A DNA stretch of 41,977 bases from an uncultured Thermoplasmata archaeon. Its GTDB lineage: Archaea > Thermoplasmatota > Thermoplasmata > UBA10834. Of this stretch, positions 7,217 through 32,994 are shown piece by piece. The position numbers and the translations under genes are program-made. Location: NCBI GenBank assembly GCA_964535775.1, contig CAZHTV010000002.1, positions 1 to 41,977 of the forward strand. Direction: 5' to 3'. The notes beneath the pieces were generated by a model, which was not told where the DNA came from, did not search any database, and saw only the letters and a program-made list of their open reading frames with translations. Each line of letters opens with the position of its first letter. Positions within the stretch are counted from its first letter, which is position 1.

Positions 7217-8233
7217 TCACCGGATAGCTCCCTTGAGCTTCAGGTACTTGACATAGTCAATGTACTCCTTCCTGTCGGTCTCTGTCTGAACCCTGACCGT
7301 GGCCTTCTTGTCGGTCACGACCGTGAAGCTCAGCGCGTCACTGCCGGCTCCCGAGCCGTATGATATGACCATGATCTTGTCTCCGACCTTCGCCGCGTCG
7401 AGTGCAGATGCCAGTGCGACGGGGACGGAGGCCGCTCCCAGATCCCCGAGGGATTTCGAAACCAGGCTCGAGGCGAGCTGTGCGTCTGTGAACTGGAGCC
7501 TGGCCGCAACCGTGGCCGGGACCCTTGCATCCGGCTGCTGGATGACCACATGCTGGTACTCGTCGGGCTTCCTGCCCAGCCTCTTCAGGAGCGCCAATCC
7601 TGCCCTGGTCGTGTTCAGGACGACGGAACCCTCGGCGAACTTCTTCACGTTCAGGTCGTGCACCAGGGGATCGTCCTTCGGCTTGAACCTCTCTCCGAAA
7701 TGCTCGCTGGCATACGAGACGTGTCCTTCGAGCTCGGCGATGAGGTCGTCAGATGACATCACAAACGCAGCCGCTCCGGCCCCGAATGCGTGTTCCACGG
7801 TATCCCACATGCTCGCCCTGGGCGCGTCGGCCGCTGCTGCCACGGCCTTTCCCGAGGTGGTCGCCAATACGTGTTCGAAGGCAGCCAGCATGGCCTCGGT
7901 ACCGGCCCTCGTTGAACTTGTGTGATCTGATGTGAAGGCGGTGCTGGGCATTCCAACGCTCACCAGAACGGTGCCGGAGAGCAGCTTCTCGAGATAGGGG
8001 GCGGACGTCGATGCCAGAGCGAATCTGGTCACCTTGTCCGCCGTCATCGGGACCGACTCGAGCGCCCGTCTGGTGACCTTGGTGACCGCGGTGAGAGCAT
8101 CCTCGTCAAAGCCGAGCACGGACTTCTCGTTAACGCCAGCTGCCGAGAACGACCCCCACGCCTTCATGTACTCTTCACGCTTTATCCTGAGCCTCGGTAT
8201 GTAGACGCCATATCCTGAGATCCCGACTGCCAT
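7217..8233 (-). CDS. HMG-CoA synthase homologue with degenerate active site (pseudo-HMGCS)
   Basis: 338 aa. Family signatures are present: VGISGYGVYIPRLRIK, SYGSGAGSDA and YIDYVKYLKLKG. At the positions aligned with the archaeal motifs GSES / FACKAGT / FHQPN it reads ASTS / SSTRAGT / IQQPD. Confidence 0.8.
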   Translation of the reverse strand: MAVGISGYGVYIPRLRIKREEYMKAWGSFSAAGVNEKSVLGFDEDALTAVTKVTRRALESVPMTADKVTRFALASTSAPYLEKLLSGTVLVSVGMPSTAFTSDHTSSTRAGTEAMLAAFEHVLATTSGKAVAAAADAPRASMWDTVEHAFGAGAAAFVMSSDDLIAELEGHVSYASEHFGERFKPKDDPLVHDLNVKKFAEGSVVLNTTRAGLALLKRLGRKPDEYQHVVIQQPDARVPATVAARLQFTDAQLASSLVSKSLGDLGAASVPVALASALDAAKVGDKIMVISYGSGAGSDALSFTVVTDKKATVRVQTETDRKEYIDYVKYLKLKGAIR

Positions 8234-8239
8234 CGTGCC

Positions 8240-9406
8240 TCACCTCCTCAGGATGGACACTGCGACAGTGCCGCCCGATCCGCCCACGTTGTGGATCAAT
8301 CCCACTTCCGCACCCTTGACCTGCCTGGCCGGCTTCTGGACGGTGCCTCGGAGCTGGTTGAACATCTCATAGGCCATGCCCGTCCCGGTCGAGCCGATCG
8401 GATGACCCTTCGATTTCAGTCCTCCGCTCGCGTTGACCGGTTTGTCGCCAGCTAGCTGCGTGTGTCCCTCCTCCATGAACTGACCGGCCTTGCCCTTCTC
8501 GCAGAACCCCAGGTCCTCGTAGGCAAGCAGCTCGGCAATGGTGAAGCAGTCATGGACCTCGGCGATTTGGACGTCCTTCGGTGAAAGGCCTGACATCTTG
8601 TACGCTGCAGCAGCTGCGCGCTTGGTGCCCTCAAGCGTCACCGTGCTTACCCTGTCGTGGATCGCGAGGAAATCGCTCGCGCCCCCGAAACCGGCGATGT
8701 AGACCGGCGTGTCCGTGTACTGCTTGGCGACCTCGGTGTCGCAGACGAGCACCGCGGACGCTCCGTCCGTCGTAGAACAGCAGTCGAACAGATTGAGGGG
8801 GTCCGCCACGATAGGCCCTTTGATCGCCTGCTCCATGGTGATTTCCCGCTGGAACTGCGCCTTGGGGTTCTGGGCGCCATTCTTGTGATTCTTCACGGCG
8901 ACCATTGACAGGTGTTCCCTCTTGGTGCCGAACTCGTGCATATGTCTCCGGGCCATGAGCGCGTATAGCCCGGCGAAGGTGGTGCCTGCGAGTCTCTCAT
9001 ATTCGGTGTCCCCTGAGACGCCCAGCCAATACTTCTGTTTCATGCCGGAGACGTCCGTCATCTTCTCGACGCCGCCCGCGATAACGACCTTGTGAGCGCC
9101 CGAGAGGATGTCCAAAGCAGCGGAAATGATTGCATATCCGCCAGAGGCACATGCGTTCTCTATCCTCATCGTGTTGATGTGTGTGAGCCCGCAGTACTCC
9201 GTAACGAGGGCAGACATGTTGCCCAGCTGAAACCCGCCAGAGCCGAGATTGCCTATGTACGCCGATCCGATCGACTTGGGGTCTACTCCCTTGTCTACGC
9301 TCGCGGTCATGTCCTTATAGGCCTCGAAGAAGAGCTCCTTGATTCCCTTGTCGGGGAAGTCGCCGTATCTGCTCTGCCCTGCGCCAACGATAGCCACTTT
9401 CTTCAT
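8240..9406 (-). CDS. Acetyl-CoA acetyltransferase / thiolase (archaeal SCP-x-like type)
   Basis: 388 aa. The nucleophile motif ENACASG (Cys86), GHPIGSTGTG and HNVGGSGG are present. GGGAGGT lies 8 nt upstream of the ATG. Confidence 0.85.
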   Translation of the reverse strand: MKKVAIVGAGQSRYGDFPDKGIKELFFEAYKDMTASVDKGVDPKSIGSAYIGNLGSGGFQLGNMSALVTEYCGLTHINTMRIENACASGGYAIISAALDILSGAHKVVIAGGVEKMTDVSGMKQKYWLGVSGDTEYERLAGTTFAGLYALMARRHMHEFGTKREHLSMVAVKNHKNGAQNPKAQFQREITMEQAIKGPIVADPLNLFDCCSTTDGASAVLVCDTEVAKQYTDTPVYIAGFGGASDFLAIHDRVSTVTLEGTKRAAAAAYKMSGLSPKDVQIAEVHDCFTIAELLAYEDLGFCEKGKAGQFMEEGHTQLAGDKPVNASGGLKSKGHPIGSTGTGMAYEMFNQLRGTVQKPARQVKGAEVGLIHNVGGSGGTVAVSILRR

Positions 9407-9680
9407 CCGAAAGACCTCCCGTCAGGCCCCCTCTCAGGACGCGATCGCCCGGACGCCTGCATGTGCGTTCCAGGCGGTCGATTCTGGATGTCTGGAACAG
9501 CGGTTGCTCGAATCAAGGTCAAGCTATTTAACGATTGGCGATTTACACGGGCCCCCAAGCTGCAAACAGACATGCGGTTACGAAAGGGTGCGCGCACAGG
9601 TCAGCGCCCATCCTCGAATCGTACCGCGCAATCCGAGTTCGTAACGCCGTCGCTTTCGACCTGACAAGATGCTAAATACG

Positions 9681-9695
9681 GAATCGTATAATGGG
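9681..9695 (+). promoter_or_regulatory. Candidate TATA box for kamA
   Basis: GAATCGTATAATGGG lies ~40 nt upstream of the ATG at 9732. Confidence 0.4.
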
Positions 9696-9731
9696 TATGA
9701 CCAGGCTGCGGATTGCGTGGAGGCAGTTGCG

Positions 9732-11006
9732 ATGCGCTCGTACAAGGAAGTATCCCTCTGGAAGAACGTCTTAGAGAAGGAATGGGACGATTGGAAGTGG
9801 CAGCTAAGGAACCGTGTCACCACCCTCGAGCAGCTCAAGGAAGTCATCAACCTCACTCCACAAGAGGAGCAAGGAGTCCGCAAGTCGCTCAGGGTCCTCA
9901 GGATGGCAATCAGCCCGTACTTCGCGATGCTGATGGATCCTGACGACCCACACTGCCCCATCAGGATGCAGGCCGTTCCGACCGTGAAGGAGATAGACTT
10001 CAGCGCTTCTGACATGGAGGACCCGCTCTTCGAGGACACGGACTCCCCTACGCACGGCGTCACTCACAGATATCCCGACAGGGTGCTCTTCCTGATCACG
10101 GACATGTGCGGCAACTATTGCAGGCACTGCACACGCAGGAGGTTCGCAGGCCACAAAGACAGACAGGCCGACAGGTCCGCTATCGACGCCTCCATCAAGT
10201 ACATCAAGGAGCACGAGGAGGTCAGAGACGTCCTCCTCTCCGGCGGAGACGGCCTGATGGTTTCAGACGCGATGCTGGAGGACATAATCGAGCGCCTGCA
10301 GGCCATAGACCATGTGGAGATCGTCAGGATAGGAAGCAGGGCTCCGTGCACGCTCCCACAGCGGATAACGCCTGAACTCTGCAAGATGCTGGCGAAACAT
10401 CATCCGATCTGGCTGAACACCCACTTCAATCACCCGAAGGAGATCACTCCTGAGTCCAAACGGGCCGTGGAGATGCTCGCCGACCACGGCATACCCGTCG
10501 GGAACCAATCCGTGCTGTTGAAGGGAATCAACGACTGCCCGACCATCATGAAGAAGTTGTCGCACGAACTCGTCAAGATCAGGTGCAGGCCCTACTACTA
10601 CTACCAGTGCGACCTCTCGAAGGGCATAGAGCACTTCAGGACCGATGTCGCGAAGGGCATCGAGATAGCAGAGGCCCTGAGAGGGCACACTTCTGGATTC
10701 TGCGTCCCGACCTTCATCATAGACGCTCCAGGCGGCGGTGGCAAGATACCAGTGGGTCCCAACTATCTCATCTCGATGTCGGACAAGAGGGTCGTCCTGA
10801 GGAACTACGAGGGGGGCACATTCACTTACCCTCAGCCGAAGGATCGCACGAGCGTCTGCCCGCCCAGCTGCAGGATGTGCGATGACTACAGCAACCTCGA
10901 GAGCAAGGAAGGCGTTGCAGGAGTACTCTCCGGGAACAAGTTGTGCCTCGTCCCCCAGGGCACGCTGCGTGAGGCCAGGCGCAAGGCGTACCGCAAGAAG
11001 AGGTAG
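9732..11006 (+). CDS. kamA: Lysine 2,3-aminomutase (radical SAM, PLP)
   Basis: It is collinear with clostridial KamA from MRSYKEVSLWKNV..WDDWKWQLRNR. It has the CGNYCRHCTRR radical-SAM cluster, HRYPDRVL, IVRIGSR, NTHFNHP and DAPGGGGK. I chose the ATG at 9732 over 9669 because a TATA-like box at 9681-9695 lies between them and the homology starts here. Confidence 0.9.
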   Translation: MRSYKEVSLWKNVLEKEWDDWKWQLRNRVTTLEQLKEVINLTPQEEQGVRKSLRVLRMAISPYFAMLMDPDDPHCPIRMQAVPTVKEIDFSASDMEDPLFEDTDSPTHGVTHRYPDRVLFLITDMCGNYCRHCTRRRFAGHKDRQADRSAIDASIKYIKEHEEVRDVLLSGGDGLMVSDAMLEDIIERLQAIDHVEIVRIGSRAPCTLPQRITPELCKMLAKHHPIWLNTHFNHPKEITPESKRAVEMLADHGIPVGNQSVLLKGINDCPTIMKKLSHELVKIRCRPYYYYQCDLSKGIEHFRTDVAKGIEIAEALRGHTSGFCVPTFIIDAPGGGGKIPVGPNYLISMSDKRVVLRNYEGGTFTYPQPKDRTSVCPPSCRMCDDYSNLESKEGVAGVLSGNKLCLVPQGTLREARRKAYRKKR

Positions 11007-11048
11007 CGTGACTGCTTCGTGACTGGCCTTCTCGGGGCCCTCGCTCCG

Positions 11049-11061
11049 AAAAGGTTAAAAG
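11049..11061 (+). promoter_or_regulatory. Candidate BRE/TATA for the SAM synthetase gene
   Basis: AAAAGGTTAAAAG lies ~45 nt upstream of the ATG at 11103. The same AAAAGG(A/T)T core is seen at the mvk and hmgA promoters. Confidence 0.45.
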
Positions 11062-11102
11062 CGGAAAAGGATTCTTCCGGCCGACCTTTGCGAGATGAGC
11101 CG

Positions 11103-12299
11103 ATGGCTAGGAATATTTTCATTGAGGAACTCAACCAGCTCCCGATCGAGAAGCAAGGTGTGGAATTCGTCGAAAGGAAGGGCGTTGGCCACCCTGACAG
11201 CATTGCGGACGGCCTTGCAGAGAACGTCAGCAGGGCCCTCTGCAAGATGTACATCAAGCTGTACGGGAGGATCCTGCATCACAACACAGACGAGGTGGAG
11301 GTCGTTGGCGGCCAGTCCGCCCCAAAGTTCGGAGGCGGGGCCATACTGGAGCCGTCCTACATACTCCTGGTCGGGAGGGCGACGACCGAGGTCAACGGGG
11401 AGAGACTCCCTTACAGGACCTGCGCCGTCAAGGCAGCGTACGACTACCTTGAGAGGAACTGCAAGCACCTCGACACCGAATGGGGCGTCACCATCGACTG
11501 CCGGATCGGACAGGGCAGCGTCGACCTCAGAGGGGTCTACGAGACCAAGCGCCTCCTGGCAAACGACACATCGTTCGGAGTCGGGTTCGCGCCTTTCAGC
11601 GAGACCGAGACGATCACGCTCGAAACCGAGAAGTACATCAACGGGAAGCTCGGCAGGACGATGCCGGAGCTCGGCGAGGACGTGAAGGTGATGGCCTGTC
11701 GTATGGAGGACCGAATCGACCTGACCATAGCGGTGGCTATGGTCGACTGCAGGCTGTCGAACAAGAACGAGTACAAGAGCTCCATAGAGCAGCTTACGGA
11801 GAGGGTCACAGACTTTGCCCAGAAGTTCACCGATAGGAAGCTGAGGGTTTTCGTGAACACCGCTGACGACTACAAGGGGGACATATTCTACCTGACCGTC
11901 TCCGGGCTGAGCATGGAGAACGGCGACGACGGCTCGGTGGGCAGAGGCAACAGGGCGAACGGTCTGATAACGCCGATGAGACCCATGAGCATGGAGGCCT
12001 CCGCGGGCAAGAACCCAGTGACGCATGTTGGCAAGCTCTACAACATACTGGCGAACCAGGTTGCGAACGACATAGTCAAGGCCGGAAGGGGGGACATCGT
12101 GGAGGTCCAAACGCGCATATTGTCTCAGATAGGGAAGCCGATAGACAGCCCACAGGCGGCGAGTGCGAGGATGATGTACGCCGACAACGTCAACCCGAGG
12201 AAATACGCAAGAGAGGTCGCCGCCCTGTTCGATGAGAAGCTGGCCAATATCACCGGGTTGACGGACAAGATAGTCGCTGGGAAGATATCCGTATTCTAG
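11103..12299 (+). CDS. metK: Archaeal-type S-adenosylmethionine synthetase
   Basis: From the ATG at 11103 ([37 protein letters not shown]), about 398 aa, which is typical of archaeal MAT. The upstream 28 codons of the track ORF are taken as spurious. Confidence 0.9.
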
Positions 12300-12328: not shown

Positions 12329-15300
12329 CTACCTGACTTCCTCTTCCTTCGACTTAAGGATCTTGGCAAGGTCGGTGAGCTCCCCCTCTATGGACTGCAG
12401 CCTCGACCATTCGTCCTCCAGCCTCTGCTCGTCGCGGCGTATCTCCTCCTCCCTCTGAGAGAGCTTGAGATATAGTTCGTCGAGCTCTACCTTCCTGCGT
12501 TCAAGCTCTGTGATGGCCTTCTCGTCCAGTCCCTCGGCCAGTCCCTTCTTCGAGGCCTCGATGTTCTCCCAGAGGTCCTGCACCTCCGCGCGCTCCTTCT
12601 CAAGTTGCTCCATCTCGACAACAACAGTCCTCTCCCGGGTCTCGAGGTCCCTTTCTCGGTCCCTCATGCGTTCCTCAAGACTCTGCAACTCCAGCTCCCT
12701 CCGGACGAGATCGTCCTCGTTGATCTGAGCTGGCTGAGGCCTGGTGAGGGCCGCCGCGTCCCTCGACACCTCTGACACCCTGATCCTCACTTCCTCTTCG
12801 AGCTGCTCCCTCTTGCCCATGAGCTCGAGCCGCCACTTGTCCAGCTCTGCTCTCAGCTGTTCCAAACCTCTCTCCTTCTGGTCCAGGAGGCCCCGTTCCC
12901 TGTCGAGGTCCTCCTGCATGAGCTCGATCTCGGCAATGGTCTCTTCCAGGGCAGAAGTCCGGGCGAATATCTCTTTCTGCTGAGCCGCGAGGGCGTCCCG
13001 CTGTCGGGCGATCTCTTCAAGGACTTCCCCGTACTCACCCAAGGACTTCCCCGCCTCCTCCTCCTTGGTCCTGAAAGCTGCTCTCTGCTTCTCGAACCCC
13101 CTGATCTCCTGGCTCAGTCCGTCCTCACGCTGCTCGACTGCGACCACCCTCTTCTCGAGCTCGTTTGCGAGCTCGAGCGCTGAGGCCTCGTCCGCGCGCA
13201 GGATTTCCTCCTCCGCGACGAGCTTCGCCTCCCGGTCCTCCAGATCCTTCATGGACGCCGCTGTCCGCTCCCTGACAGCCTCCAGTTCCAACCGCAGCTT
13301 ATCGACATCAGCTCCTGCAGCGGCGACAGCTGCCTCCCGTTCGGCAAGAGCGATGTCCCTTCTCGACATCTCCTCCTGCAGCCGAGCTTGTTCGGAGGTC
13401 CTCTTCTCCAGCTCGTCTTTGGTCTTCTCAATCTCGGAAAATGACTGGGCGACCTCGCCTCGTTCGTCCTCAAGGCGCGCCTTCTCGTCCTCGAGCCGGC
13501 CTCTCTCGGTTTTGAGGGCCTCGAAATCACCCTGCAGTCTTGCAGCCCTTCTGTCCAGCTCGACCTGGGCTTCCTGGATGCTCTGTTCTGACTGCTCGGT
13601 TCTCTGACCAAGATCCACCTTCTGGACCTCGAGCGAATGCGCGATAGTCTTCAGCTCTTCGTCTCTGGCACGCAGATTCGTCTGTGATTCGGCGAGCCTG
13701 GATTCGAGGTCCCTGAGCTCCGACTCCTTCGCAGACAGTTGAGACTGAGACAGATTGAGCTCCTCCTTGACCTTCGCGAGGTTGGCTCTCTCCGCATCGA
13801 GGTCGGCGCGTGAGGCGGTGAGCTGTTCCTCCGTCGCACGAAGCTCGCCTTCCTTCGTCAGAAGCCCTGCCTCTGACTCCGCCAGGCGGGACTCCAGCTG
13901 ATTCAGCTGGAGGCCTTTGGACTCCAGGTCCGCCTGGGACTGCCCCAGCTCCTCCTCGGACCTCTTCAGTTCGGCCTCCTTGGTCATCAGTTGTGAATGT
14001 GATTGTGTCAGTTCTGATTCGAGCTTGCCCAGCTCGGACTCCCTCGTCCGCAGGCTGGCCTGGGACTCCTCCAGCTCCTTCTCCATCTTCTTGAGCTCGG
14101 CGCCGCGTTCGTTCAGCCTGGCCTGCGATTCGACGAGTTTCGCCTCGAGCTCCTTCAGCTGCGCCTCCCTTTCCTGAAGGCCAGCATGGGATGCCTTCAG
14201 CTCGGCCTCGGTTCTTCCCAGCTCGTCATGCTTCTTGCCAAGCTGCTGCTCAGCCCTAAGTAGACGGTCTTCTAGCTCCCCTAGCTCGACCTGCTTCGTG
14301 GAGACGCCTTTCGCGGAAGCTGCAACGGTGAGTTCCCTCGCTGAGACGTATTGGTCCTTCTCCTCCAGCTCCTTTGCCCTCTGTTCCAGCTGCGCTTTCG
14401 CCGCCTCGAGGTCCGACCACACGGCCTCGTTCTCCTTGAGGGTCTTGTCCCTCTCCTGCTGCAGATCCTCCCATTCCTTGGCAAGCGACTCGCGCTGCGA
14501 CTCGAGGGTCTGCTTCTCGGTCCTGAGGTTCTCCACCTGCTCAGCAACCGCCTTCTTGGCTGATTGGATGGCGCTCTCAGCATCTGCAAAGGCCTTCTGC
14601 TTCTCGGCTAGTGTGTTCTCCTCCTCGATAATCCTCTGCTCCCGAACGCTCGCCTCTTGCTCGGTGGAGGTCATCTTGCTCCGGAACGCCTCCAAGGATG
14701 CCGACTCCGCCTCGAGCGTCTTTCGCATCGCCTCGAGCTCGGCGAACTTGGACCCATAGTCGCTCTCCAATTTCGCCTTCTCGCTCCTCAGCGATTTGGA
14801 CAGAGCCTCGAGTTCGGACTTCCGCGATTCAAGCGTCGTCTCCCTTTGCCCGAGCTCCGCTGATTTCGATTTCAGTGATTCTGAGATATCATCAAGCTGG
14901 CCCTTCCATTCCTCGAGTTCCGACTGCTGCGAGGTTATCTCCTGTTCCTTCGCCTCGATCTCAGACTTGGATTTCTCCAATGCCTGCTCATGCTCCAAAA
15001 GTTCGCTCCTCTTGGCCTCCAGGGCGTCCCGCTCGCCCTCGGAAGTCGTGAGCTGTTCCTTCAGGAGCGCTTCCCTGTCCTCGAGGCCCGCCTTGGTTTC
15101 ACGCAGTTCCGCGGTAGCCTGGTCCATTCGCTCTTTCTTGACGGCGAGCTCCTTCTCGAGCTGCTCCAATTCCTCCTTCCTCTTGCCGAGATCCCGACGC
15201 ATTCCATCGATGGCGACGCGCTCCTCTGCCATCTTGAGCTCTGAAGCGGCCACATCGCTTGCGCGCTGGTTCAATATGCTCCTCATCTCGTCGACCGAGA

Positions 15301-17386
15301 TGGACTTCTCCTCTCCCTCCTTGCGCTCATCCTCCAGCTTCGCGAGCTTCTCGTCGATCTCCTTCTGAGCCTCGGTTATCTGCCTCTCGGCCTCCGCCCT
15401 CTCCTGCTCGAACGCCACCTTCTCCTGCTCGAAGGCGTTCCGCTCCTTGACCAGCTCCTCCTTCGCCTTCTGCGACTCTCGCTCGAAGGAGGACTTCTCG
15501 TCGTTGACCGCGGCCGCGTAGTCCTCCGCTTCGGCTCTTATCGATTCTATCTCCTGCTCGATCTTCTTGACAGCCGCTTCTCGCTTGTCCAGCGCGTCCC
15601 TCGTCTTCTGAATGCCGGCGCCGCTTTCCTTGAGCTGAGCCTCGAGCTCGGAAAGGGCCCTGTTTCTGGCCTCGCTCTCCGAGGAGAACCTGTCCTCGTC
15701 CGCCCTCAGCTTCTCCTCACGCCTCTGCAGCTCCGAAGTCTTCCTGGCGAGTTCGGTCCGAAGGGTCTCCATGTCCGTCTGGAACTTCTCGTGGTCTTTC
15801 CTGAGTTGCTCCTCCCTGGCCTTCGCCGCGGCATCGAGCATCGAGGCCTTCTCCAACGCCTGCTTGGAGTCCGTCTCGGAGGCGACGAGCGCCTTCTCCC
15901 TTCTGTCAAGGTCTTCCAGCTTCGATCCTATGGCCTTCTCACGTTCGTTCAGGGCCTGCTCCTGGGTGACAAGCTTTGACTTGAGGCTCTCCAGCTCATG
16001 CGTCAGCTTGGAGATGGATTCCTCACGCTGGTTGACCTCGACGGTCGCACGGTCGAGCGCCGACCTCGTCTGGGAGGCGCCCTCCTCGTGCGCCTTCTTC
16101 AGCCGTTCGAGCTCCTTCCGCTCTGTGTCTATGCCCGCACGGACCTTCTGCAGCTCCACATTTTCCAGGGCCAGCGCGTGCTCCTTCTCGGCGAGCCTCT
16201 TGTCGCGATCCTTCGCCTCCTGGGTTGTTCTCTCGAGCGCCTCCTCGTTCTCCTGTATCGCCTGGAGGCGCTCCCCCATCGCCCTCTTCTCGGCCTGTAC
16301 ATCTTCCATCAGGTCTGAGACCTTCTGCCTCTCCTGCTCAAGGCGTTTCTTCTCACCTTGGACCTCCACCATCCTCTGCTCCGTCTTGAGGCCGACTATC
16401 CTATCCAGCTGCTGATACCTCGACTCTATCTCCTTCTCCATCATCTCGAGGTTCGCTCTCTTCGAATCGAGTGACTGCATCTCCTTCGCCAGTTTCGCCC
16501 TTACCTTTGATGTGAGCTCCGCCTCCTCGCTCGTGAGCTTGATCCTGAAGTTCTCCAGCTCCTTTCGGGTCTGACGGACCCGGACCAGCGTCTGCCGAAC
16601 CTCCTGTCGCTCCTTCTCAAGCTCGGCTCTTTCCGCTGCATTCTTCTGTGACTCTCCTGCCAGCTTCGCTGCCAGAGCGGAAAGCTTCTTCTTCTCATGT
16701 TCGAGCTTCTCCACCTCGACCAGGATCTCATCCTGCTTCAGCTCAGCGACCGCTTCGGCCTCGGCTTCGCTCCTCTGCGGCAACGGCGCAGGCTTCTCGC
16801 CTGAGAACATCTCCAGCTCCCTCTGTATCGAGGCCAGCTTCGTGGGCTCGAGCGTCGAAGCCTTGAGCCCCACGAGCCCCACCGCCTTGTGTATGGCCAC
16901 GAGGTCCCTCACCGTCTGGATGAGCCTCAGGACGCTGACGAACTTGTTGTTGGTGATGACATACTCAAGCGAGTCTATGAGAACAAGCTGGCCCCCGCCC
17001 TCCTCGAGGAACCTCCTGATGTTGAGCGTCAGTCGCTCCAGGTCCTTGGGACCGATGGCATCCTCGCTCATAGCGTTGGTCAGCCAGTATATCGGGACGT
17101 CGGGCACGTTCAGGGACTTCCTCAGGTTCTTCGGGTAGGTCCTCGATATGATCATCCCGCGCATCCCGTTGCGCGTGGCGCTGACGAAGAGAGAGTAGAC
17201 GAGCTCGGGCTTCTCCTCCTCGACGAGATATGTGACACTGGACTCGAGCACAAGCTGCTGGGCCTCTGGCTCTTGCGGAGGCTGCTGTGCGGGGGACCTC
17301 TCCTCATCGCCCTCCTCTCGGGAGGGCGTCAGGGGCTCCGCTGTCTGCTTAAGAGCGGTCTCTCTGGCCTTGTCCCTCAGACCCAT
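12329..17386 (-). CDS. Giant (1685 aa) DUF835-domain / coiled-coil protein
   Basis: Residues ~46-190 (nt ~16817-17251) match my recollection of the DUF835 pattern: YLVEEEKPE..., GMIISRTYP, VPIYWLT, IGPKDLERL, LVLIDSLEYVITNNKF, LRLIQTVRDLV. The remaining ~1450 aa are E/K/L/A/R/Q/S-rich heptad-like sequence with almost no Pro, Gly or aromatic residues. Confidence 0.75.
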   Translation of the reverse strand: MGLRDKARETALKQTAEPLTPSREEGDEERSPAQQPPQEPEAQQLVLESSVTYLVEEEKPELVYSLFVSATRNGMRGMIISRTYPKNLRKSLNVPDVPIYWLTNAMSEDAIGPKDLERLTLNIRRFLEEGGGQLVLIDSLEYVITNNKFVSVLRLIQTVRDLVAIHKAVGLVGLKASTLEPTKLASIQRELEMFSGEKPAPLPQRSEAEAEAVAELKQDEILVEVEKLEHEKKKLSALAAKLAGESQKNAAERAELEKERQEVRQTLVRVRQTRKELENFRIKLTSEEAELTSKVRAKLAKEMQSLDSKRANLEMMEKEIESRYQQLDRIVGLKTEQRMVEVQGEKKRLEQERQKVSDLMEDVQAEKRAMGERLQAIQENEEALERTTQEAKDRDKRLAEKEHALALENVELQKVRAGIDTERKELERLKKAHEEGASQTRSALDRATVEVNQREESISKLTHELESLKSKLVTQEQALNEREKAIGSKLEDLDRREKALVASETDSKQALEKASMLDAAAKAREEQLRKDHEKFQTDMETLRTELARKTSELQRREEKLRADEDRFSSESEARNRALSELEAQLKESGAGIQKTRDALDKREAAVKKIEQEIESIRAEAEDYAAAVNDEKSSFERESQKAKEELVKERNAFEQEKVAFEQERAEAERQITEAQKEIDEKLAKLEDERKEGEEKSISVDEMRSILNQRASDVAASELKMAEERVAIDGMRRDLGKRKEELEQLEKELAVKKERMDQATAELRETKAGLEDREALLKEQLTTSEGERDALEAKRSELLEHEQALEKSKSEIEAKEQEITSQQSELEEWKGQLDDISESLKSKSAELGQRETTLESRKSELEALSKSLRSEKAKLESDYGSKFAELEAMRKTLEAESASLEAFRSKMTSTEQEASVREQRIIEEENTLAEKQKAFADAESAIQSAKKAVAEQVENLRTEKQTLESQRESLAKEWEDLQQERDKTLKENEAVWSDLEAAKAQLEQRAKELEEKDQYVSARELTVAASAKGVSTKQVELGELEDRLLRAEQQLGKKHDELGRTEAELKASHAGLQEREAQLKELEAKLVESQARLNERGAELKKMEKELEESQASLRTRESELGKLESELTQSHSQLMTKEAELKRSEEELGQSQADLESKGLQLNQLESRLAESEAGLLTKEGELRATEEQLTASRADLDAERANLAKVKEELNLSQSQLSAKESELRDLESRLAESQTNLRARDEELKTIAHSLEVQKVDLGQRTEQSEQSIQEAQVELDRRAARLQGDFEALKTERGRLEDEKARLEDERGEVAQSFSEIEKTKDELEKRTSEQARLQEEMSRRDIALAEREAAVAAAGADVDKLRLELEAVRERTAASMKDLEDREAKLVAEEEILRADEASALELANELEKRVVAVEQREDGLSQEIRGFEKQRAAFRTKEEEAGKSLGEYGEVLEEIARQRDALAAQQKEIFARTSALEETIAEIELMQEDLDRERGLLDQKERGLEQLRAELDKWRLELMGKREQLEEEVRIRVSEVSRDAAALTRPQPAQINEDDLVRRELELQSLEERMRDRERDLETRERTVVVEMEQLEKERAEVQDLWENIEASKKGLAEGLDEKAITELERRKVELDELYLKLSQREEEIRRDEQRLEDEWSRLQSIEGELTDLAKILKSKEEEVR
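13649..14203 (-). repeat. About 8-9 tandem 21-residue (63-nt, three-heptad) protein-level repeats inside the giant coiled-coil gene
   Basis: Successive 21-mers: ESQARLNERGAELKKMEKELE / ESQASLRTRESELGKLESELT / QSHSQLMTKEAELKRSEEELG / QSQADLESKGLQLNQLESRLA / ESEAGLLTKEGELRATEEQLT / ASRADLDAERANLAKVKEELN / LSQSQLSAKESELRDLESRLA / ESQTNLRARDEELK. The DNA copies have diverged. Confidence 0.6.
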
Positions 17387-17488
17387 TGTGGACTGGCTCC
17401 GTGTTCCTTTTGTGTTAGGGGGGTTTTCCGTCGTCTTCTGCTCTGAATCTGGTCAAGTAATATATCCGCTCATACATTTAATCGCTTC

Positions 17489-18760
17489 TCAGATCTTGAA
17501 CCGGTCGAGCACCCTCTCGTAGAGGGCGAAGTCCTCCGATTTGGAGAACCGGTCGATCGACTCCTCGGGCAACTGGCCGAGCATCTGGTCCAGCACCTTC
17601 AGCAGTTTCTTCAGGTCCTCGTCCACGATGGAGGCCTCCTCGATGTCAGTCTGGACCTTGATCTTCTCCATGATCAGGGCAGTCAGTTGCTCCTCCACAT
17701 GTGATATGGCCTCATCGAGATCGACCTCGGCTGCCTCGATCTCCTCCTTGGCGGTCTCCTTGCCGGTGCGGTGGAACTCGATTGTCGATTTGAGCACAAG
17801 CAGCTTCTTAGCCACGGACTTCTTCGTATCCTCCCACTCAGCTGCAGCGGACTCTCTCTCGGGTTCGGTCCGAGCGCCTTCGATCTGGGCCCTGAGCCTC
17901 TCCAGCCCCTCTCGGTCGGCCTCGAGCTTCGAAAGCCTTGCTTGGAGAGCAGCTTCTGCCCCATCGAGCTGCTTCTTCTTCTGCGCATAGGCCTGGATCT
18001 TTCGGTCGACCATCTCCTCGCGTTTGACCAGCTGCACCTCCCTGTTCCTGAGCTCGTCGACCTCCTTCTCTTTGGCGTCCAGCTTCTTCCTGAGCGCGCG
18101 CGCGGCGAGACCACGCTCCCTGACTGGAGCGCTCACATCGGCCGATTCGAGCAGGGAGGATATCTCGTCCGAAAGAGCGTCCATGTGAGCCTGAAGCATC
18201 GTTATGTCCGCCATCTCGTCAGCGAGCGACATGATCTCTGCCTCTATCTGTTGGGCGGCCGCGGCGCTGTCATGCACTTCAGATATCTGGGCCAGCCTGG
18301 ACTTCTGCTGCTCCAGTCTCTCCTCCATGCGGTCCAACATCTCGGACCTGTTCGCGGTCAGCTCGTTGATGCTCTGTTTGAGCTCGGCCAGCTTGCGAAG
18401 GCGCTCGATCTCGGGAGCGGCCCGTACTGCTGGCTCTGACGCCACAGCTCCCGTCTCAGATACTTGCTTCTCTGTCGCCTCGGGGCCCTTGCCACTCCAT
18501 TCCAGAAGCTTCATGAGGAATCGGTCGTCCTCCGCCTGTTCGACTGGCTTCACAGTCCTGACCTTGAACCTGAGACCGCATGTGGGGCACTGAGGATCGC
18601 CAAGAGCCATCACGGTCTTGCACTTCGGGCATGCGAAGGCCTTGACCTCCTCGGTGAGCTCAGAAAGACATCCCTCGCACCGTCTGGCGTCCCGCTCCAC
18701 CATCTGATGGCATGCCAGACAGTAGGCTTCTCCTGACCGGGTAATCCCTTTGGAGGCCAT
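17489..18760 (-). CDS. Double zinc-ribbon + coiled-coil protein, function unknown
   Basis: 423 aa. There are two N-terminal C-x2-C-x10-C-x2-C ribbons (CLACHQMVERDARRCEGC and CPKCKTVMALGDPQCPTC), then ~300 aa of coiled-coil-like sequence and a C-terminal motif LLKVLDQMLGQLPEESIDRFSKSEDFALYERVLDRF. Confidence 0.65.
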   Translation of the reverse strand: MASKGITRSGEAYCLACHQMVERDARRCEGCLSELTEEVKAFACPKCKTVMALGDPQCPTCGLRFKVRTVKPVEQAEDDRFLMKLLEWSGKGPEATEKQVSETGAVASEPAVRAAPEIERLRKLAELKQSINELTANRSEMLDRMEERLEQQKSRLAQISEVHDSAAAAQQIEAEIMSLADEMADITMLQAHMDALSDEISSLLESADVSAPVRERGLAARALRKKLDAKEKEVDELRNREVQLVKREEMVDRKIQAYAQKKKQLDGAEAALQARLSKLEADREGLERLRAQIEGARTEPERESAAAEWEDTKKSVAKKLLVLKSTIEFHRTGKETAKEEIEAAEVDLDEAISHVEEQLTALIMEKIKVQTDIEEASIVDEDLKKLLKVLDQMLGQLPEESIDRFSKSEDFALYERVLDRFKI

Positions 18761-23982: not shown

Positions 23983-24813
23983 CTACCTGGCGAACTGGGT
24001 GAACGCCTGGAGTGCGCGCATCGAGTTCTTCGGTATCTTCTTGCTGGAATCCACAGACAAACCCGTCTCGGATATCGTGATCGGTCTTGGAACCGTGTCA
24101 TGAGCCGATCCGCGGAACTTCTCGACCGTGATCCACCTATCGATCTTGTTCGAGACCAGCCGCTTGTGGAGCCGGACCTCGCCCCTGCATATGAATATCT
24201 CGGCCTCCAGCTCGGTGGGGTCGGGCAGGTCCGTGATGACAAGGGCTGTCACGCACGACTCCGATATGAAGCGCAGCAGCGACATGATGGGCGAGGACTG
24301 GTCATCCATCGTCTCGGAGAGCTTCCTGAGCGAAGTGAGCGAATCTATGACCAGACGGTCATAGCGCGCATCCTGGAACTCCTGCTTGAGCATCAGCTGC
24401 AACGACTGGATAGATATCTCCGGTGCGGCCTGCTTTATCGCCTCCGCCCTGCCACCGCCACCCATCTCTCTCAGAACCCCGACGGTCCTCTGCGCGGCAA
24501 CCTCCACAAGCGAGACCCTCTTGCTGAACGCCTTGGCGGCGGGGTGCACGTCCAATATCCTTATCTTCCCCACATCCCAGCCCAGCGCGCGGAAGTTCTC
24601 CCTGATCTCCGTCGGGGGCTCATCGACGGCGACCAGGAGAGACCGCTCGCCGGCCTTCACGCCTTGGTGCAGGAACTGGATCCCCAGAGTGGTCTTGCCG
24701 CTGCCTGTCGTCCCCGACACGACATACGGCCTGCCGACGATCAGCCCTCCCCTCAGCATCTCGTCCAGACCTTCTATGCCCGTGCTCATCCTGCCCTCGC
24801 GTGCCCCGCTCAT
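23983..24813 (-). CDS. Single-domain KaiC-like / RecA-superfamily ATPase
   Basis: 276 aa. It has GIEGLDEMLRGGL, Walker A GTTGSGKTT and Walker B LVIDSLTS. Its ATG overlaps the upstream gene's TGA (ATGA at 24810-24813). Confidence 0.8.
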   Translation of the reverse strand: MSGAREGRMSTGIEGLDEMLRGGLIVGRPYVVSGTTGSGKTTLGIQFLHQGVKAGERSLLVAVDEPPTEIRENFRALGWDVGKIRILDVHPAAKAFSKRVSLVEVAAQRTVGVLREMGGGGRAEAIKQAAPEISIQSLQLMLKQEFQDARYDRLVIDSLTSLRKLSETMDDQSSPIMSLLRFISESCVTALVITDLPDPTELEAEIFICRGEVRLHKRLVSNKIDRWITVEKFRGSAHDTVPRPITISETGLSVDSSKKIPKNSMRALQAFTQFAR

Positions 24814-25760
24814 ATGCCACCCCCGGAATGTGGGTCAGGATTTCCCTGTCCCGCGGGCGACTCGGCCGACTGCTCTGGAGGCTTCTCGGCGGAGCCGGCC
24901 TCCGGCGGCTCGGGCACTTCGTCAGGAGGCGGCGGAGGCTCTTCCTCCCCTTTGCCCTCAGAATGCGCCTTCGCATGGATAGCTGACCTCTTCTTCTCCT
25001 GGGCCGCGCTCTTGACAACGAGCCCCCCGGACCCTATTTTGACCATGCGCAGGGTGTGGTCGTGAGTCGAGCCTCTGTATTTCTCGACTGTGACACCCCT
25101 CATCAGCCCGCGTCCGTCGACCCACTTGTGGAGCCTGATCTCCCCTCGGGCCATATGCATCTCAACGTCCGGCTTGGAGACCTCGGGGAGATGCACGGTC
25201 AGGAGACACGTGACGCCGAGGTCCGAGAGCAGCCTCAGGAAAGATATCAGGTTCGCGCTCTCCTCACTGGTCCGAATGTAGAAGTACCTCAGAGATGTAA
25301 GGGAGTCCACGACCACACGTGAGTATTTCCGGACCTTCATCTCCTGTCTGAGGAGCTCCTGGATCGTGTTGACGGTCATGTCCACGGGGCTCCGTTCCGA
25401 AGTCTGGCGTATGCCCTTCGGCAGGTCCTTGAAGTAGACCACCCTTCTCTCGGTGGACACGTCCCTGACCGGGGTCTTGTCATAGCTCATCACGTCCGGG
25501 GTCGCATCGAATACCTGGATGCGGCCGATGTCCCAACCGTAGGAGAGCATGTTGCTGCTGACTTCATTGGGCGGCTCGTCCAGGGAGACGTAGATGGTCC
25601 TCTCGCCTGCCTTGGAGCCCTCGAGAAGGAACTGCATGGCGAGCGTTGTCTTGCCCGTGCCTGAGGTGCCGGACACGAGGTACACTCTCCCTGGGATGAG
25701 CCCGCCATACAGCATCTCGTCAAGGCCAGGCACCCCGGTCTTGACTTTGTCCTTGATCAT
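24810..25760 (-). CDS. Single-domain KaiC-like / RecA-superfamily ATPase with an acidic Pro/Glu-rich C-terminal tail
   Basis: From the ATG at 25760 (MIKDKVKTGVPGLDEMLYGGL). It has Walker A GTSGTGKTT and Walker B VVVDSLTS, with a ~65-aa low-complexity tail (EEEPPPPPDEVPEPPEAGSAEKPPEQ...). The 44 upstream codons of the track ORF are taken as spurious. Confidence 0.8.
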   Translation of the reverse strand: MIKDKVKTGVPGLDEMLYGGLIPGRVYLVSGTSGTGKTTLAMQFLLEGSKAGERTIYVSLDEPPNEVSSNMLSYGWDIGRIQVFDATPDVMSYDKTPVRDVSTERRVVYFKDLPKGIRQTSERSPVDMTVNTIQELLRQEMKVRKYSRVVVDSLTSLRYFYIRTSEESANLISFLRLLSDLGVTCLLTVHLPEVSKPDVEMHMARGEIRLHKWVDGRGLMRGVTVEKYRGSTHDHTLRMVKIGSGGLVVKSAAQEKKRSAIHAKAHSEGKGEEEPPPPPDEVPEPPEAGSAEKPPEQSAESPAGQGNPDPHSGGGI

Positions 25761-25843
25761 CTGACGCCACCAATCATGCGATGCCTGGAGTTCACACGGC
25801 CTGGCACTTGATTCAGATTGGATATGCTTATATTTTTGCCTGC

Positions 25844-25891
25844 GATGGCCATGCCCTGTAACTGTGGCCATCGAACAGTCACAAGTGGCCA
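25844..25891. promoter_or_regulatory. Candidate operator: three palindromic TGGCCA hexamers, the first two within an 8-bp inverted repeat
   Basis: GATGGCCA (25844-25851) and TGGCCATC (25865-25872) are perfect reverse complements. A third TGGCCA lies at 25886-25891. Spacings are 19 and 21 bp. The sites lie between an AT-rich TATA-like GCTTATATTTTTGC (~25826-25839) and the MFS start at 25907. Confidence 0.3.
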
Positions 25892-25906
25892 ATCAGGAGT
25901 ACACCT

Positions 25907-31925: not shown

Positions 31926-32852
31926 TCAGTCCTCGCGCCTGACGCCTTCAGACCCCACTCTGACAACTATCGGCTCCCCGCCCGAGTTCCTGATCGCCTC
32001 TGCGACCGACCCGACGTCGTCCGTCAACGCGATCATACTGCCCCCGCCTCCTGCGCCTGTGAGCTTCGCACCGTATGAATGAGGCTTGACAGCGCCCACG
32101 AGTTCATCCAGCGCGGGATGCCCGACCCCGAGTGAGTTCAAGAGCCCTTGGTTCTCGTCCATGAGCTTCCCGAGCCTCCTCTTGTCCCTGGCCTTGAGTG
32201 CGTCGACGCCCTCGAGGACTATCTCCCCTATCCTGTCGACGGCAGTTCCGGCCTCAGGGTTCTGGTCGACCAGCTTCTTCACCTTCGCGACGAGAGGCCC
32301 GGTTGAGGCGTGAATGCCCGTGTATCCGACTACGAAATCGAGCTTGGGAACTTCGCAGTGATGCATGTTCCAGACGCTGCCTCCGTGCTCGATCCTCCAG
32401 AGGAACCCATCCTTCTCTTCCGGCGAGACGAGAACACCGTTTCCGTGCGTGGAGATTGAGGTGTCTGTTGGGCTCGCGCGTCCCTGGACCTTGAGCTCGA
32501 CCGCGAAGGACTTCTTGGCAACGGCTTCCGGGCTGAGCCTCCCCTTCGAACTCAGCATAGCGGCAACAGACGACACGGTCACCGCCGCGGATGACCCGAG
32601 ACCCGAGCCGGAAGGGATCTCGGAGACAGTGTCGACGTTGATCGGCGGGCCTCCCCACGCCTCGTCGAGAGCTGCGGAGATGTAGGCATGGTGCTTCTTC
32701 CTCATCGGCCGTCCGTTGACGCTGTACTCGTGCGACTTGCAGACGGAAGCGGAAATCCTCAGGTCTATCGCCAGGCCCAGCGCGGGCTTCCCGAAGACGA
32801 CCGCGTGTTCGCCGAACAGAATCATCTTCCCCGGCGCCGAGCACTTCGTCAT
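31926..32852 (-). CDS. mvk: Mevalonate kinase
   Basis: From the ATG at 32852 (MTKCSAPGKMILFGEHAVVFGKPALG). It has the GHMP motif IPSGSGLGSSAAV and GAKLTGAGGGGSMIAL. GGAGGAG lies upstream of this ATG. Confidence 0.85.
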   Translation of the reverse strand: MTKCSAPGKMILFGEHAVVFGKPALGLAIDLRISASVCKSHEYSVNGRPMRKKHHAYISAALDEAWGGPPINVDTVSEIPSGSGLGSSAAVTVSSVAAMLSSKGRLSPEAVAKKSFAVELKVQGRASPTDTSISTHGNGVLVSPEEKDGFLWRIEHGGSVWNMHHCEVPKLDFVVGYTGIHASTGPLVAKVKKLVDQNPEAGTAVDRIGEIVLEGVDALKARDKRRLGKLMDENQGLLNSLGVGHPALDELVGAVKPHSYGAKLTGAGGGGSMIALTDDVGSVAEAIRNSGGEPIVVRVGSEGVRRED

Positions 32853-32876
32853 CAATACTCCTCCAGCCCCGAATCC

Positions 32877-32890
32877 GGTTATATCCTTTT
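32877..32890 (-). promoter_or_regulatory. Candidate BRE/TATA for mvk
   Basis: The minus strand reads AAAAGGATATAACC, ~30 nt upstream of the ATG at 32852. Confidence 0.45.
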
Positions 32891-32940
32891 CCATGAGCTT
32901 CAGCCACCTCGCTCTTCTGTCATTGCCGATTGACCCCTGC

Positions 32941-32953
32941 AAAAGGATTAAGA
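32941..32953 (+). promoter_or_regulatory. Candidate BRE/TATA for hmgA
   Basis: AAAAGGATTAAGA lies ~48 nt upstream of the ATG at 32995. Confidence 0.45.
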
Positions 32954-32994
32954 CCGCAGTACGGGGTTCGGCATACCAGCACCGGTGTTGACTC

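Follow-up and report, generated by a model that had tools for sequence, protein, structure and literature searches.

A conserved giant coiled-coil protein of Thermoplasmata carrying an ATPase-dead DUF835 head

We analyzed a giant gene carried on a 41,977-nucleotide stretch of DNA (hereafter, the window) from an uncultured Thermoplasmata archaeon (contig CAZHTV010000002.1 of assembly GCA_964535775.1), with a G+C content of about 59-60%. An initial annotation, made from the sequence alone, had described at 12329-17386 an open reading frame (ORF) for a 1685-aa protein with an N-terminal DUF835 domain fused to a very long coiled coil, and the ORF list and its translation agree exactly with these limits, on the minus strand and with an ATG start. 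The gene occupies a conserved core-genome position between housekeeping genes, and the archaeal housekeeping genes of the window include those for an archaeal-type AdoMet synthetase, thiolase, HMG-CoA synthase, HMG-CoA reductase, the beta subunit of phenylalanyl-tRNA synthetase (PheRS) and deoxyhypusine synthase. The Thermoplasmatota host envisaged at the outset fits the 32 loci that were found to carry the gene, all of which are labelled as Thermoplasmata, Thermoplasmatota or Euryarchaeota metagenome-assembled genomes (MAGs). The features of the gene and of its product are listed here with the evidence for each, where pLDDT stands for the predicted local distance difference test score of AlphaFold2.

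12329..17386, minus strand: ORF of the giant protein, ATG start, 1685 codons plus stop (ORF list and translation)
17348..17386, minus strand: residues 1-13, invariant N-terminal peptide MGLRDKARETALK, a candidate tethered short linear motif (orthologue starts)
17240..17347, minus strand: residues 14-49, Pro/Glu/Gln-rich disordered linker of variable length (pLDDT 49-57)
16811..17239, minus strand: residues 50-192, DUF835 (iKaiC) head with a RecA/KaiC-like alpha/beta fold (Pfam, AlphaFold2, Foldseek)
16769..16810, minus strand: residues 193-206, flexible Pro-rich hinge between head and rod (pLDDT below 50 at 199-205; P199, P201, P203)
12749..16768, minus strand: residues 207-1546, main coiled-coil rod (proline absence, heptad statistics, register, AlphaFold2 helices)
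16352..16624, minus strand: residues 255-345, the part of the rod with the highest conservation (ELEKERQEVRQTLVRVRQTRKELENFRIKLTSEEAELTSKVRAKLAKEMQSLDSK...), which may be a dimerisation trigger or a partner site (column conservation 0.83-0.87)
13595..14224, minus strand: residues 1055-1264, ten tandem 21-residue (three-heptad) repeats of the form ELxxxExxLxxSQxxLxxxxx (protein autocorrelation)
12719..12748, minus strand: residues 1547-1556, LTRPQPAQIN, the sole definite helix break of the rod (P1550, P1552)
12332..12718, minus strand: residues 1557-1685, helical module conserved at the C-terminus, in which Trp, Tyr and Gly positions are invariant (DLW, KKG, YLK, EW; conservation 0.68-0.73)

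The orthologue survey, in which one genome per GTDB species was scanned, returned the 32 loci mentioned above, and the giant gene proved to be a conserved single-copy locus in about 30 Thermoplasmata species. Frames read through these loci yielded 22 complete orthologues of 1602-1762 aa, two of them on complete chromosomes (CP070736.1, OY970070.1) and others on contigs as long as 906 kb. The nearest orthologue likewise has 1685 aa and is 82% identical. The 1685-aa protein contains no cysteine, as is the case for 11 of the 22 orthologues, the others having 1-3. Ratios of nonsynonymous to synonymous substitution rates (Ka/Ks), calculated by the Nei-Gojobori method for four close pairs, were 0.03-0.05 for the head, 0.07-0.15 for residues 216-930 of the rod, 0.07-0.32 for the remaining rod and 0.19-0.43 for the N-terminal linker. 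As the ratio stays within 0.07-0.32 along the whole rod, the sequence of the rod itself is under selection. A search of the gene with Tandem Repeats Finder (TRF) detected no strong DNA tandem repeats, only weak short ones with scores of 60 or less.

These data dispose of the possibility, raised in the initial annotation, of a repetitive sequence having been misassembled, and equally of a spurious ORF in GC-rich DNA. In favor of such an artefact, all 23 relatives in a large protein database are truncated fragments, and an exact-sequence look-up found no record of the window protein. Against it stand the 22 complete orthologues of similar length from independent assemblies, two of them complete chromosomes, the lack of strong DNA tandem repeats, Ka/Ks values well below 1 in every segment, and the conservation of the start, of a promoter-like box and of a Shine-Dalgarno motif. 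An artefact is excluded, its probability being practically nil, and the database fragments reflect short-read assemblies that break within the gene. With residues 43-235 as the query, 47 relatives were retrieved; those closest to the window protein, 14 in number (64-82% identity), are fragments from Thermoplasmata metagenome bins, none of them longer than 319 aa. The consequence of such truncation is that automatic pipelines misname the pieces: truncated copies (P0014, P0017 and P0191 to P0199) carry misleading names such as "FtsZ-interacting cell division protein ZipA", "archaellum biogenesis ATPase FlaH", "chromosome segregation ATPase", "SbcCD ATPase subunit" and "DUF3084", and members of the family are otherwise annotated as "DUF835 domain-containing" or "hypothetical". 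The ZipA, FlaH, chromosome segregation ATPase and SbcCD labels on these fragments should be disregarded.

The head is a bona fide member of the DUF835 family with a RecA/KaiC fold and has lost its P-loop. A profile search with Pfam DUF835 (PF05763), the family first proposed for this N-terminal domain, matched the full profile (positions 4-136 of 136) on residues 59-191 with an E value of 7.1e-28 and a score of 97.5 bits, the gathering cutoff being 33.1, and in a Pfam scan of the whole protein no other family rose above its cutoff. The DUF835 signature residues Y53, L54, P60, Y64, R82, P85, P98, W101, L102 and P113 are present, and the head is exactly 143 aa long in 23 of 23 full-length sequences. 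An AlphaFold2 model of residues 1-345, based on a 45-sequence alignment (mean pLDDT 86), showed an alternating beta/alpha domain at 50-192 (pLDDT 87-98) and a single helix at 207-344, with low confidence at 1-45 and 193-206. The head of this model was matched by Foldseek in the Protein Data Bank (PDB) to KaiC (8fwj, 7s65), FlaH/ArlH (4yds), PH0284 (2dr3), RecA and DnaB/Twinkle, with E values of 4e-6 to 1e-4, a probability of 1.0 and root-mean-square deviations of 3.2-4.3 Å over about 150-165 columns; the target-normalised template modelling (TM) score was 0.45-0.50 to FlaH 4yds and PH0284 2dr3. A search of the PDB with the head sequence gave nothing but chance matches to designed repeat proteins.

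KaiC, ArlH (FlaH), RadA and RecA have their core fold in common with the head, which differs from them in lacking a Walker A motif. Neither form of the motif ([AG]x4GK[ST] or GxxxxGK[ST]) was found in the window protein or in the heads of the 22 orthologues, and the sole [AG]x4GK[ST] match among the 23 sequences is a chance one in the disordered linker of orthologue L018. At the P-loop position, after strand 1, there is a conserved acidic loop, YLVEEE[KR]PE (YLVEEEKPE in the window), and a Walker-B-like strand, VLIDSLEY, is also conserved in the heads. In hhalign, LVLIDSLEY fell on the LVIDSLTS Walker B strand of a KaiC-like ATPase encoded in the window; because this local match is weak (E 0.09), the link of the head to the superfamily rests on fold and not on sequence. 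The modelled fold, its Foldseek matches and the missing Walker A motif bear out the P-loop-less KaiC/RecA-like domain that the initial annotation had described, and canonical action of the head as a motor or ATPase is excluded by the loss of the P-loop. The name "DUF835 (iKaiC)" has been used for an inactivated KaiC that serves as an output domain of archaeal response regulators and signalling proteins (PMC5847659).

An exhaustive phmmer search with the head retrieved 2263 cluster representatives at E<=1e-3, and the domain architectures of the 150 nearest were tallied. DUF835 is C-terminal in 112 of these, in keeping with the placement first described as normal, roughly stand-alone in 23, N-terminal in 10 (over 60 aa following the domain), and otherwise placed in 5. 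Among the ten N-terminal cases, no fewer than three (P0001, P0009 and P0048, 76-82% identity) are fragments of the giant family. In typical DUF835 proteins the domain sits C-terminally behind sensors, REC/PAS domains or an isoleucyl-tRNA synthetase (IleRS) followed by a helix-hairpin-helix (HhH) module, whereas in the window protein it is N-terminal, is followed by a rod of about 1480 aa and has no sensor or enzymatic partner domain. The architecture is thus atypical, but position is not a defining feature of the family and the Pfam membership stands. The closest paralogous heads (42-50% identity) are C-terminal HhH plus DUF835 extensions of IleRS in Thermoplasmatota proteins of 1379-2329 aa (P0051, P0053, P0058, P0061, P0064, P0073 and P0076), and at least 16 of the 150 nearest representatives look alike; many short "HhH-DUF835" entries on contigs of about 1 kb may be fragments of such fusions. 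No mention of an IleRS-HhH-DUF835 fusion was found in the literature searched.

Two further proteins from Thermoplasmata MAGs (P0147 and P0157) consist of an N-terminal DUF835 domain, about 1000 aa of helical repeats of about 88 residues, a transmembrane segment and an extracellular domain. They come from the same archaeal class as the window protein and resemble it in that a very long helical region follows the N-terminal DUF835; their heads are 33-36% identical to the window head. On the other hand, their post-head region contains 2.5-2.8% Pro and is built of repeats and not of a continuous heptad coil, compared with 0.1% Pro in the window rod, and they end in a membrane anchor. Together with the giant family, these proteins suggest a recurrent head-on-long-stalk design.

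On the N-terminal side of the head, MGLRD[KR]A[RK]E opens 32 of 32 orthologous genes and occurs nowhere else in the approximately 0.5 Mb of fetched loci. The disordered N-terminus of about 45 aa that was first described agrees with the low pLDDT of residues 1-45, but it is not featureless, as the first 9-13 residues are invariant across the 32 orthologous starts; this peptide has a pLDDT of about 50 and is not folded by itself. The linker behind it, the region of highest Ka/Ks, varies from 47 to 144 aa among the orthologues. In one sub-clade (L013, L016, L018, L021, L023 and L028) the acidic disordered linker has grown from about 50 to 118-144 aa, and the rods of the same sub-clade, at 1366-1379 aa, are among the shortest. 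A tethered binding motif would be expected to look like this, with an unchanging peptide at the terminus and a linker of variable length behind it, and the peptide is a candidate for such a motif. We also likened MGLRDK to the MGLFD N-terminus that is presumably found in PspA, Vipp1 and ESCRT-III, and set this resemblance aside, the downstream architecture being unrelated. On the other side of the head, the low confidence and Pro-rich composition of the hinge argue for the head being a docking module and not a mechanically coupled motor or lever.

The structural likeness to KaiC raises the question of signalling, in which the iKaiC head would join an active KaiC-like ring and the coil would transmit or integrate a conformational signal, as in Rhodobacter KaiC. 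The top Foldseek match of the head is KaiC-RS (8fwj), a protein that, like ours, has a RecA-like domain followed by a C-terminal coiled coil (8fwj, 8dba); this coil joins two hexamers, and its register shifts with the phosphorylation state (PMC10076222). DUF835 is, moreover, usually combined with REC and PAS sensors as their output or partner domain (PMC5847659), and active KaiC-like genes lie nearby in the window. However, the window coil is more than 10 times longer than the coiled coil of about 115 Å in KaiC-RS (PMC10076222), no signalling coiled coil is known that comes near a rod of 1470 residues, the hinge joining head and rod is flexible and would decouple conformational transmission, and scans with Pfam and NCBIfam revealed no sensor, kinase or output domain. 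We give such a signalling role a slim chance.

The rod itself satisfies what defines a canonical coiled coil, namely a long heptad periodicity with hydrophobic a and d positions and an absence of helix breakers. The protein is free of proline from residue 204 to 1549, and the rod is composed of 20% Glu, 12% Leu and 11% Ala with 0.1% Pro, with a net charge of -99. At 51% of positions the heptad score lies above the 95th percentile of shuffled sequences. A Viterbi assignment of register on the orthologue-averaged hydrophobicity profile gave 13 heptad-continuous segments (323, 221, 217 and 203 aa, plus shorter ones) separated by 12 discontinuities, which include seven single-residue insertions, two stutters and two stammers; Leu makes up 42% of a and 29% of d positions, and the e and g positions are rich in Glu and Arg (32-34% Glu). 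The AlphaFold2 models, which cover residues 1-345 and 1440-1685, contain helices at 207-344, 1441-1546 and 1557-1684, and for residues 345-1440 a helical coiled coil is predicted purely from sequence statistics. A helix rises 0.1485 nm per residue, and with 1366-1538 rod residues the rod would be about 203-228 nm long.

The coiled coil had been described initially as about 1450 aa without interruption. Its extent is confirmed in that heptad helix runs over residues 207-1685, but it is not strictly uninterrupted, given the 12 register discontinuities and the proline-containing break at 1547-1556. This break is non-helical in the AlphaFold2 model (model positions 108-117), with a pLDDT below 50, and is also present in orthologue fragments. 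Close to the head, residues 255-345 are conserved to about the same degree as the head and are modelled with a pLDDT of 96-98; a Pfam search of the conserved proximal rod at E<=10 returned only noise. For the orthologue fragment P0001 a precomputed Pfam match, PF28052.1, is recorded besides DUF835; none of the papers searched mentions this accession, and it may cover the conserved proximal rod. The three-heptad repeats farther along show as autocorrelation peaks at lags of 21, 42 and 63 residues.

The length of the rod is constrained. In the 23-sequence full-length alignment, residues 200-930 are gapless at pairwise identities of 39-55%, and the segment corresponding to residues 216-930, whose majority-residue conservation is 0.5-0.7, measures 715 aa in 19 of the 23 sequences, 711 in three and 722 in one. 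Residues 1361-1545 come in lengths of 171, 178, 185, 213 and 234, which differ in steps of 7. Every larger length change falls within residues 1050-1360, the repeat region; here the gap fraction rises to 0.91 (residues 1050-1350), and this stretch with its 21-residue repeats is the only indel hotspot of the family. These patterns bear on how the chains would pair. An antiparallel hairpin or dimer is disfavored, since a length change of 87 residues would re-pair and re-register the entire invariant 715-aa segment, whereas a parallel in-register homo-oligomer would be the only arrangement that leaves the other pairings intact upon a local change in length, and mainly for this reason a parallel rod is preferred.

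A very long rod with a sequence conserved from end to end would also be expected of a self-assembling cytoskeletal filament comparable to crescentin, FilP, Scy or myosin-II rods, in which dimers would associate laterally and longitudinally into cables shaping or stiffening the cell. The seven single-residue heptad insertions recall the skip residues that are generally known from myosin rods, both conserved ends of the protein could provide head-to-tail contacts, and wall-less members are generally known to exist in the class to which the host belongs. The charge distribution points the other way. In a Fourier analysis of long-range charge periodicity, the top net-charge peak of the rod was 7.0, compared with a mean of 6.6 and a 95th percentile of 9.2 in shuffles, so that the staggered electrostatic zones of myosin-rod or intermediate-filament packing are absent, and a net charge of -99 disfavors lateral bundling without counter-ions or partners. 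As the charge spectrum lies within the range of shuffles and the rod is strongly negative, lateral packing of the myosin-rod or intermediate-filament type receives no support, and we regard a filament of this kind as unlikely, though it is the strongest of the competing explanations.

In a survey of 22 proteomes, the largest prokaryotic coiled coils were those of SMC, Rad50, SbcC and MukB (PMC1322226), and the rod could be taken for the arm of a chromosome-organising or DNA-associated protein of this kind with a degenerate head. The rods of these proteins are comparable to the window rod or shorter and similar in composition, and profiles for SMC (TIGR02168, 108 bits), Rad50 and JetC/LmuB do match the window rod; C-terminal fragments bear the automatic JGI names "chromosome segregation ATPase" and "SbcCD"; and the closest paralogous DUF835 heads adjoin HhH modules, which are generally classed as DNA-binding. 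These profile matches are nevertheless confined to arm regions and far below the curated cutoffs: NCBIfam models for SMC, Rad50 and ASRP align at arm positions only, with 12-108 bits against cutoffs of 300-1087 (567 for TIGR02168), and in the PADLOC defence models JetC and LmuB match coiled-coil arms, and nothing beyond them, at 34 bits or less. The head of the window protein has a RecA fold and not an ABC fold, and the protein has no C-terminal half of a head, no hinge, no zinc hook with its CxxC, no Walker A and no ABC signature; the ABC signature ([LFY]SGG[QEK]) and CxxC are also absent from all 22 orthologues, the rod contains no central non-helical domain, and the C-terminus is purely helical.

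Transmembrane segments are likewise not predicted in the window protein or in the 22 orthologues (maximum Kyte-Doolittle 19-residue mean of 1.0-1.3), and the initial statement that Walker A, ABC signature, hinge and transmembrane segment are all missing applies to the 23 proteins alike. In addition, indels within residues 1050-1360 next to a length-invariant 216-930 segment would not be compatible with arms that fold back on each other in a conserved antiparallel manner; the Pfam scan found no DNA-binding domain, and the rod is strongly acidic. The initial view that the protein is not an SMC, Rad50 or MukB is upheld by the lack of ABC head halves, hinge and hook together with the low profile scores, and a role as a chromosome-associated arm appears very improbable. 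The membrane-shaping role that had also been suggested is unsupported, as there is neither a transmembrane segment nor an amphipathic anchor, and the rod carries a net charge of -99.

The far end of the protein is conserved as well. Residues 1496-1685 are conserved at 0.52-0.77 per 30-residue block, and the invariant columns of the C-terminal module derive from an alignment of residues 1440-1685. The AlphaFold2 model of this region (pLDDT 88, predicted TM score 0.29) consists of the helices 1441-1546 and 1557-1684, with a dip of pLDDT in the C-terminal helix at a conserved GLxxxxDE. Foldseek found no matches for this model in the PDB, and a search with the last 190 residues (1496-1685) retrieved nine relatives, all of them fragments of the giant-protein family.

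Taken as a whole, these features point to a cytoplasmic rod-shaped structural protein in which two chains, possibly more, would be paired parallel and in register over about 1470 heptad-repeat residues, forming a rod of about 205-230 nm. One end of the rod would display, for each chain, an ATPase-dead DUF835/iKaiC head on a flexible hinge and, past the head, the invariant N-terminal peptide on its disordered leash, while the opposite end would carry the conserved, jointed helical module. The rod would act as a spacer or tether of constrained length, with the heads and end modules as docking sites; for the heads, the most plausible partners would be each other or KaiC-like ATPases that are nucleotide-competent, in line with a general proposal for iKaiC domains, and the N-terminal peptide and C-terminal module would bind further partners. 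We favor this length-constrained spacer with docking heads above the other explanations, while giving it somewhat less than an even chance of being right; a cytoskeletal or scaffolding role, as first suggested, is a reasonable supposition.

Coiled coils in which length is better conserved than sequence are regarded as molecular spacers or rulers (PMC5082667). An analogy, and only an analogy, is offered by the eukaryotic golgins (e.g. giantin), Ndc80 and SAS-6 (PMC5082667), in that each end of a long, length-constrained coil bears a binding element, as here; in SAS-6, an N-terminal head that oligomerises is joined to a spoke made of a dimeric coiled coil. There is no kinship in sequence or fold between these proteins and ours, the window protein has no membrane anchor, and its archaeal host has no known endomembrane system or centriole. 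KaiC-RS, too, serves as a mechanistic analogy and not as a relative. In support of docking heads we also count two intact KaiC-like ATPases encoded 6.6 kb away as possible partners. Against a spacer with docking heads, residues 216-930 are better conserved than typical pure spacers, which makes binding or self-assembly along the rod possible, and the closeness of the KaiC-like and zinc-ribbon genes described below is uninformative, the whole region being syntenic.

A bolder version, which we hold to be rather unlikely, is that the dead heads oligomerise, alone or with KaiC-like ATPases, into a hub from which 0.2-µm spokes would radiate, forming a SAS-6-like or golgin-like archaeal cytoskeletal or tethering system. 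If this were true, such spokes would reach across much of a small cell and could position components such as the envelope, the nucleoid or DUF835-tagged translation factors (e.g. IleRS-HhH-DUF835), and prokaryotes would have a new way of building long-range intracellular architecture.

DUF835 domains and long coiled coils with a terminal globular module are each known, but no description of their combination was found in the literature searched, so that the architecture does not appear to have been reported before; the same applies to the giant family, its length-invariant 715-aa segment and its conserved terminal motifs. Long non-SMC coiled coils are rare in prokaryotes, and the conservation in about 30 Thermoplasmata species of a length-constrained rod with about 1470 residues implies a structure working at the 0.2-µm scale, comparable to small cells. 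The giant protein places DUF835/iKaiC in a new context, as a terminal module on a rod, and the occurrence of DUF835 both at a rod terminus and appended to IleRS suggests a general docking or localisation tag and not merely a signalling output. The giant family is clearly real and clearly unusual for a prokaryote, and its function is wholly what we infer from these features.

The upstream region and the neighboring genes that bear on the above are the following.

17397..17400, minus strand: GGAG, Shine-Dalgarno-like, at -14 to -11 (alignment of upstream regions)
17457..17482, minus strand: AT-rich promoter-like boxes (ATTAAATGTAT ... ATATATTAC), just past the stop codon of the upstream gene (in nearly all orthologous upstream regions)
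17489..18760, minus strand: upstream gene for a 423-aa zinc-ribbon protein (weak Pfam DZR match; sequence)
23983-24813, minus strand: first KaiC-like ATPase gene, Walker A and B intact
24810-25892, minus strand: second KaiC-like ATPase gene, Walker A and B intact, with a Pro/Glu-rich C-terminal tail

The AT-rich boxes may represent an archaeal TATA box with B recognition element (TATA/BRE). The intergenic region (17387-17488, minus strand) also contains a C6 tract at 17418-17423, and a C-rich tract and the GGAG are kept even in the non-syntenic locus L013, in which the promoter-box region consists of masked N. In single-sequence folds the C-tract is predicted to form a hairpin loop in about half of the orthologues, with differing stems (GCATC/GATGC, GCGCC/GGCGC, CCACGC/GCGTGG), and the window has no such hairpin. 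A conserved structure in the 5' untranslated region was considered and rejected, as RNAalifold found no consensus and the z-scores of single-sequence hairpins were not significant.

In the zinc-ribbon neighbor, which is assigned to no family, a double zinc ribbon at the N-terminus is followed by a coiled coil of about 300 aa and, at the C-terminus, by the conserved motif SEDFxLYE[RK]VLDRFKI. The neighbor gene adjoins the giant gene in most of the informative loci (29 of 31), L013 being an exception, and its product may possibly be a partner of the giant protein. The tandem KaiC-like genes, with the Walker A motifs GTTGSGKT and GTSGTGKT between them, overlap by 4 nt and lie 6.6 kb upstream of the giant gene, an arrangement whose synteny is kept in most orthologous loci. 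Inference of partners from the gene neighborhood was rejected, because the whole 25-kb region is collinear across the clade and the zinc-ribbon gene of L013 is not adjacent. In a locus from an unrelated uncultured archaeon (L031, 779-2042), DUF835 is the C-terminal domain (35% identity) of a 417-aa protein whose gene lies directly beside a divergently oriented gene for a KaiC-like ATPase, an anecdotal example of iKaiC-KaiC pairing.

Elsewhere in the window, genes of the mevalonate pathway are scattered at 7217-9406 (minus strand), 31926-32996 (minus strand) and 32995-34278 (plus strand), and comprise an HMG-CoA-synthase-like gene and genes for thiolase, a GHMP kinase and HMG-CoA reductase. A lysine-2,3-aminomutase-like gene of the radical S-adenosylmethionine (SAM) type (9669-11006) is situated directly upstream of the archaeal AdoMet synthetase gene (11019-12299).

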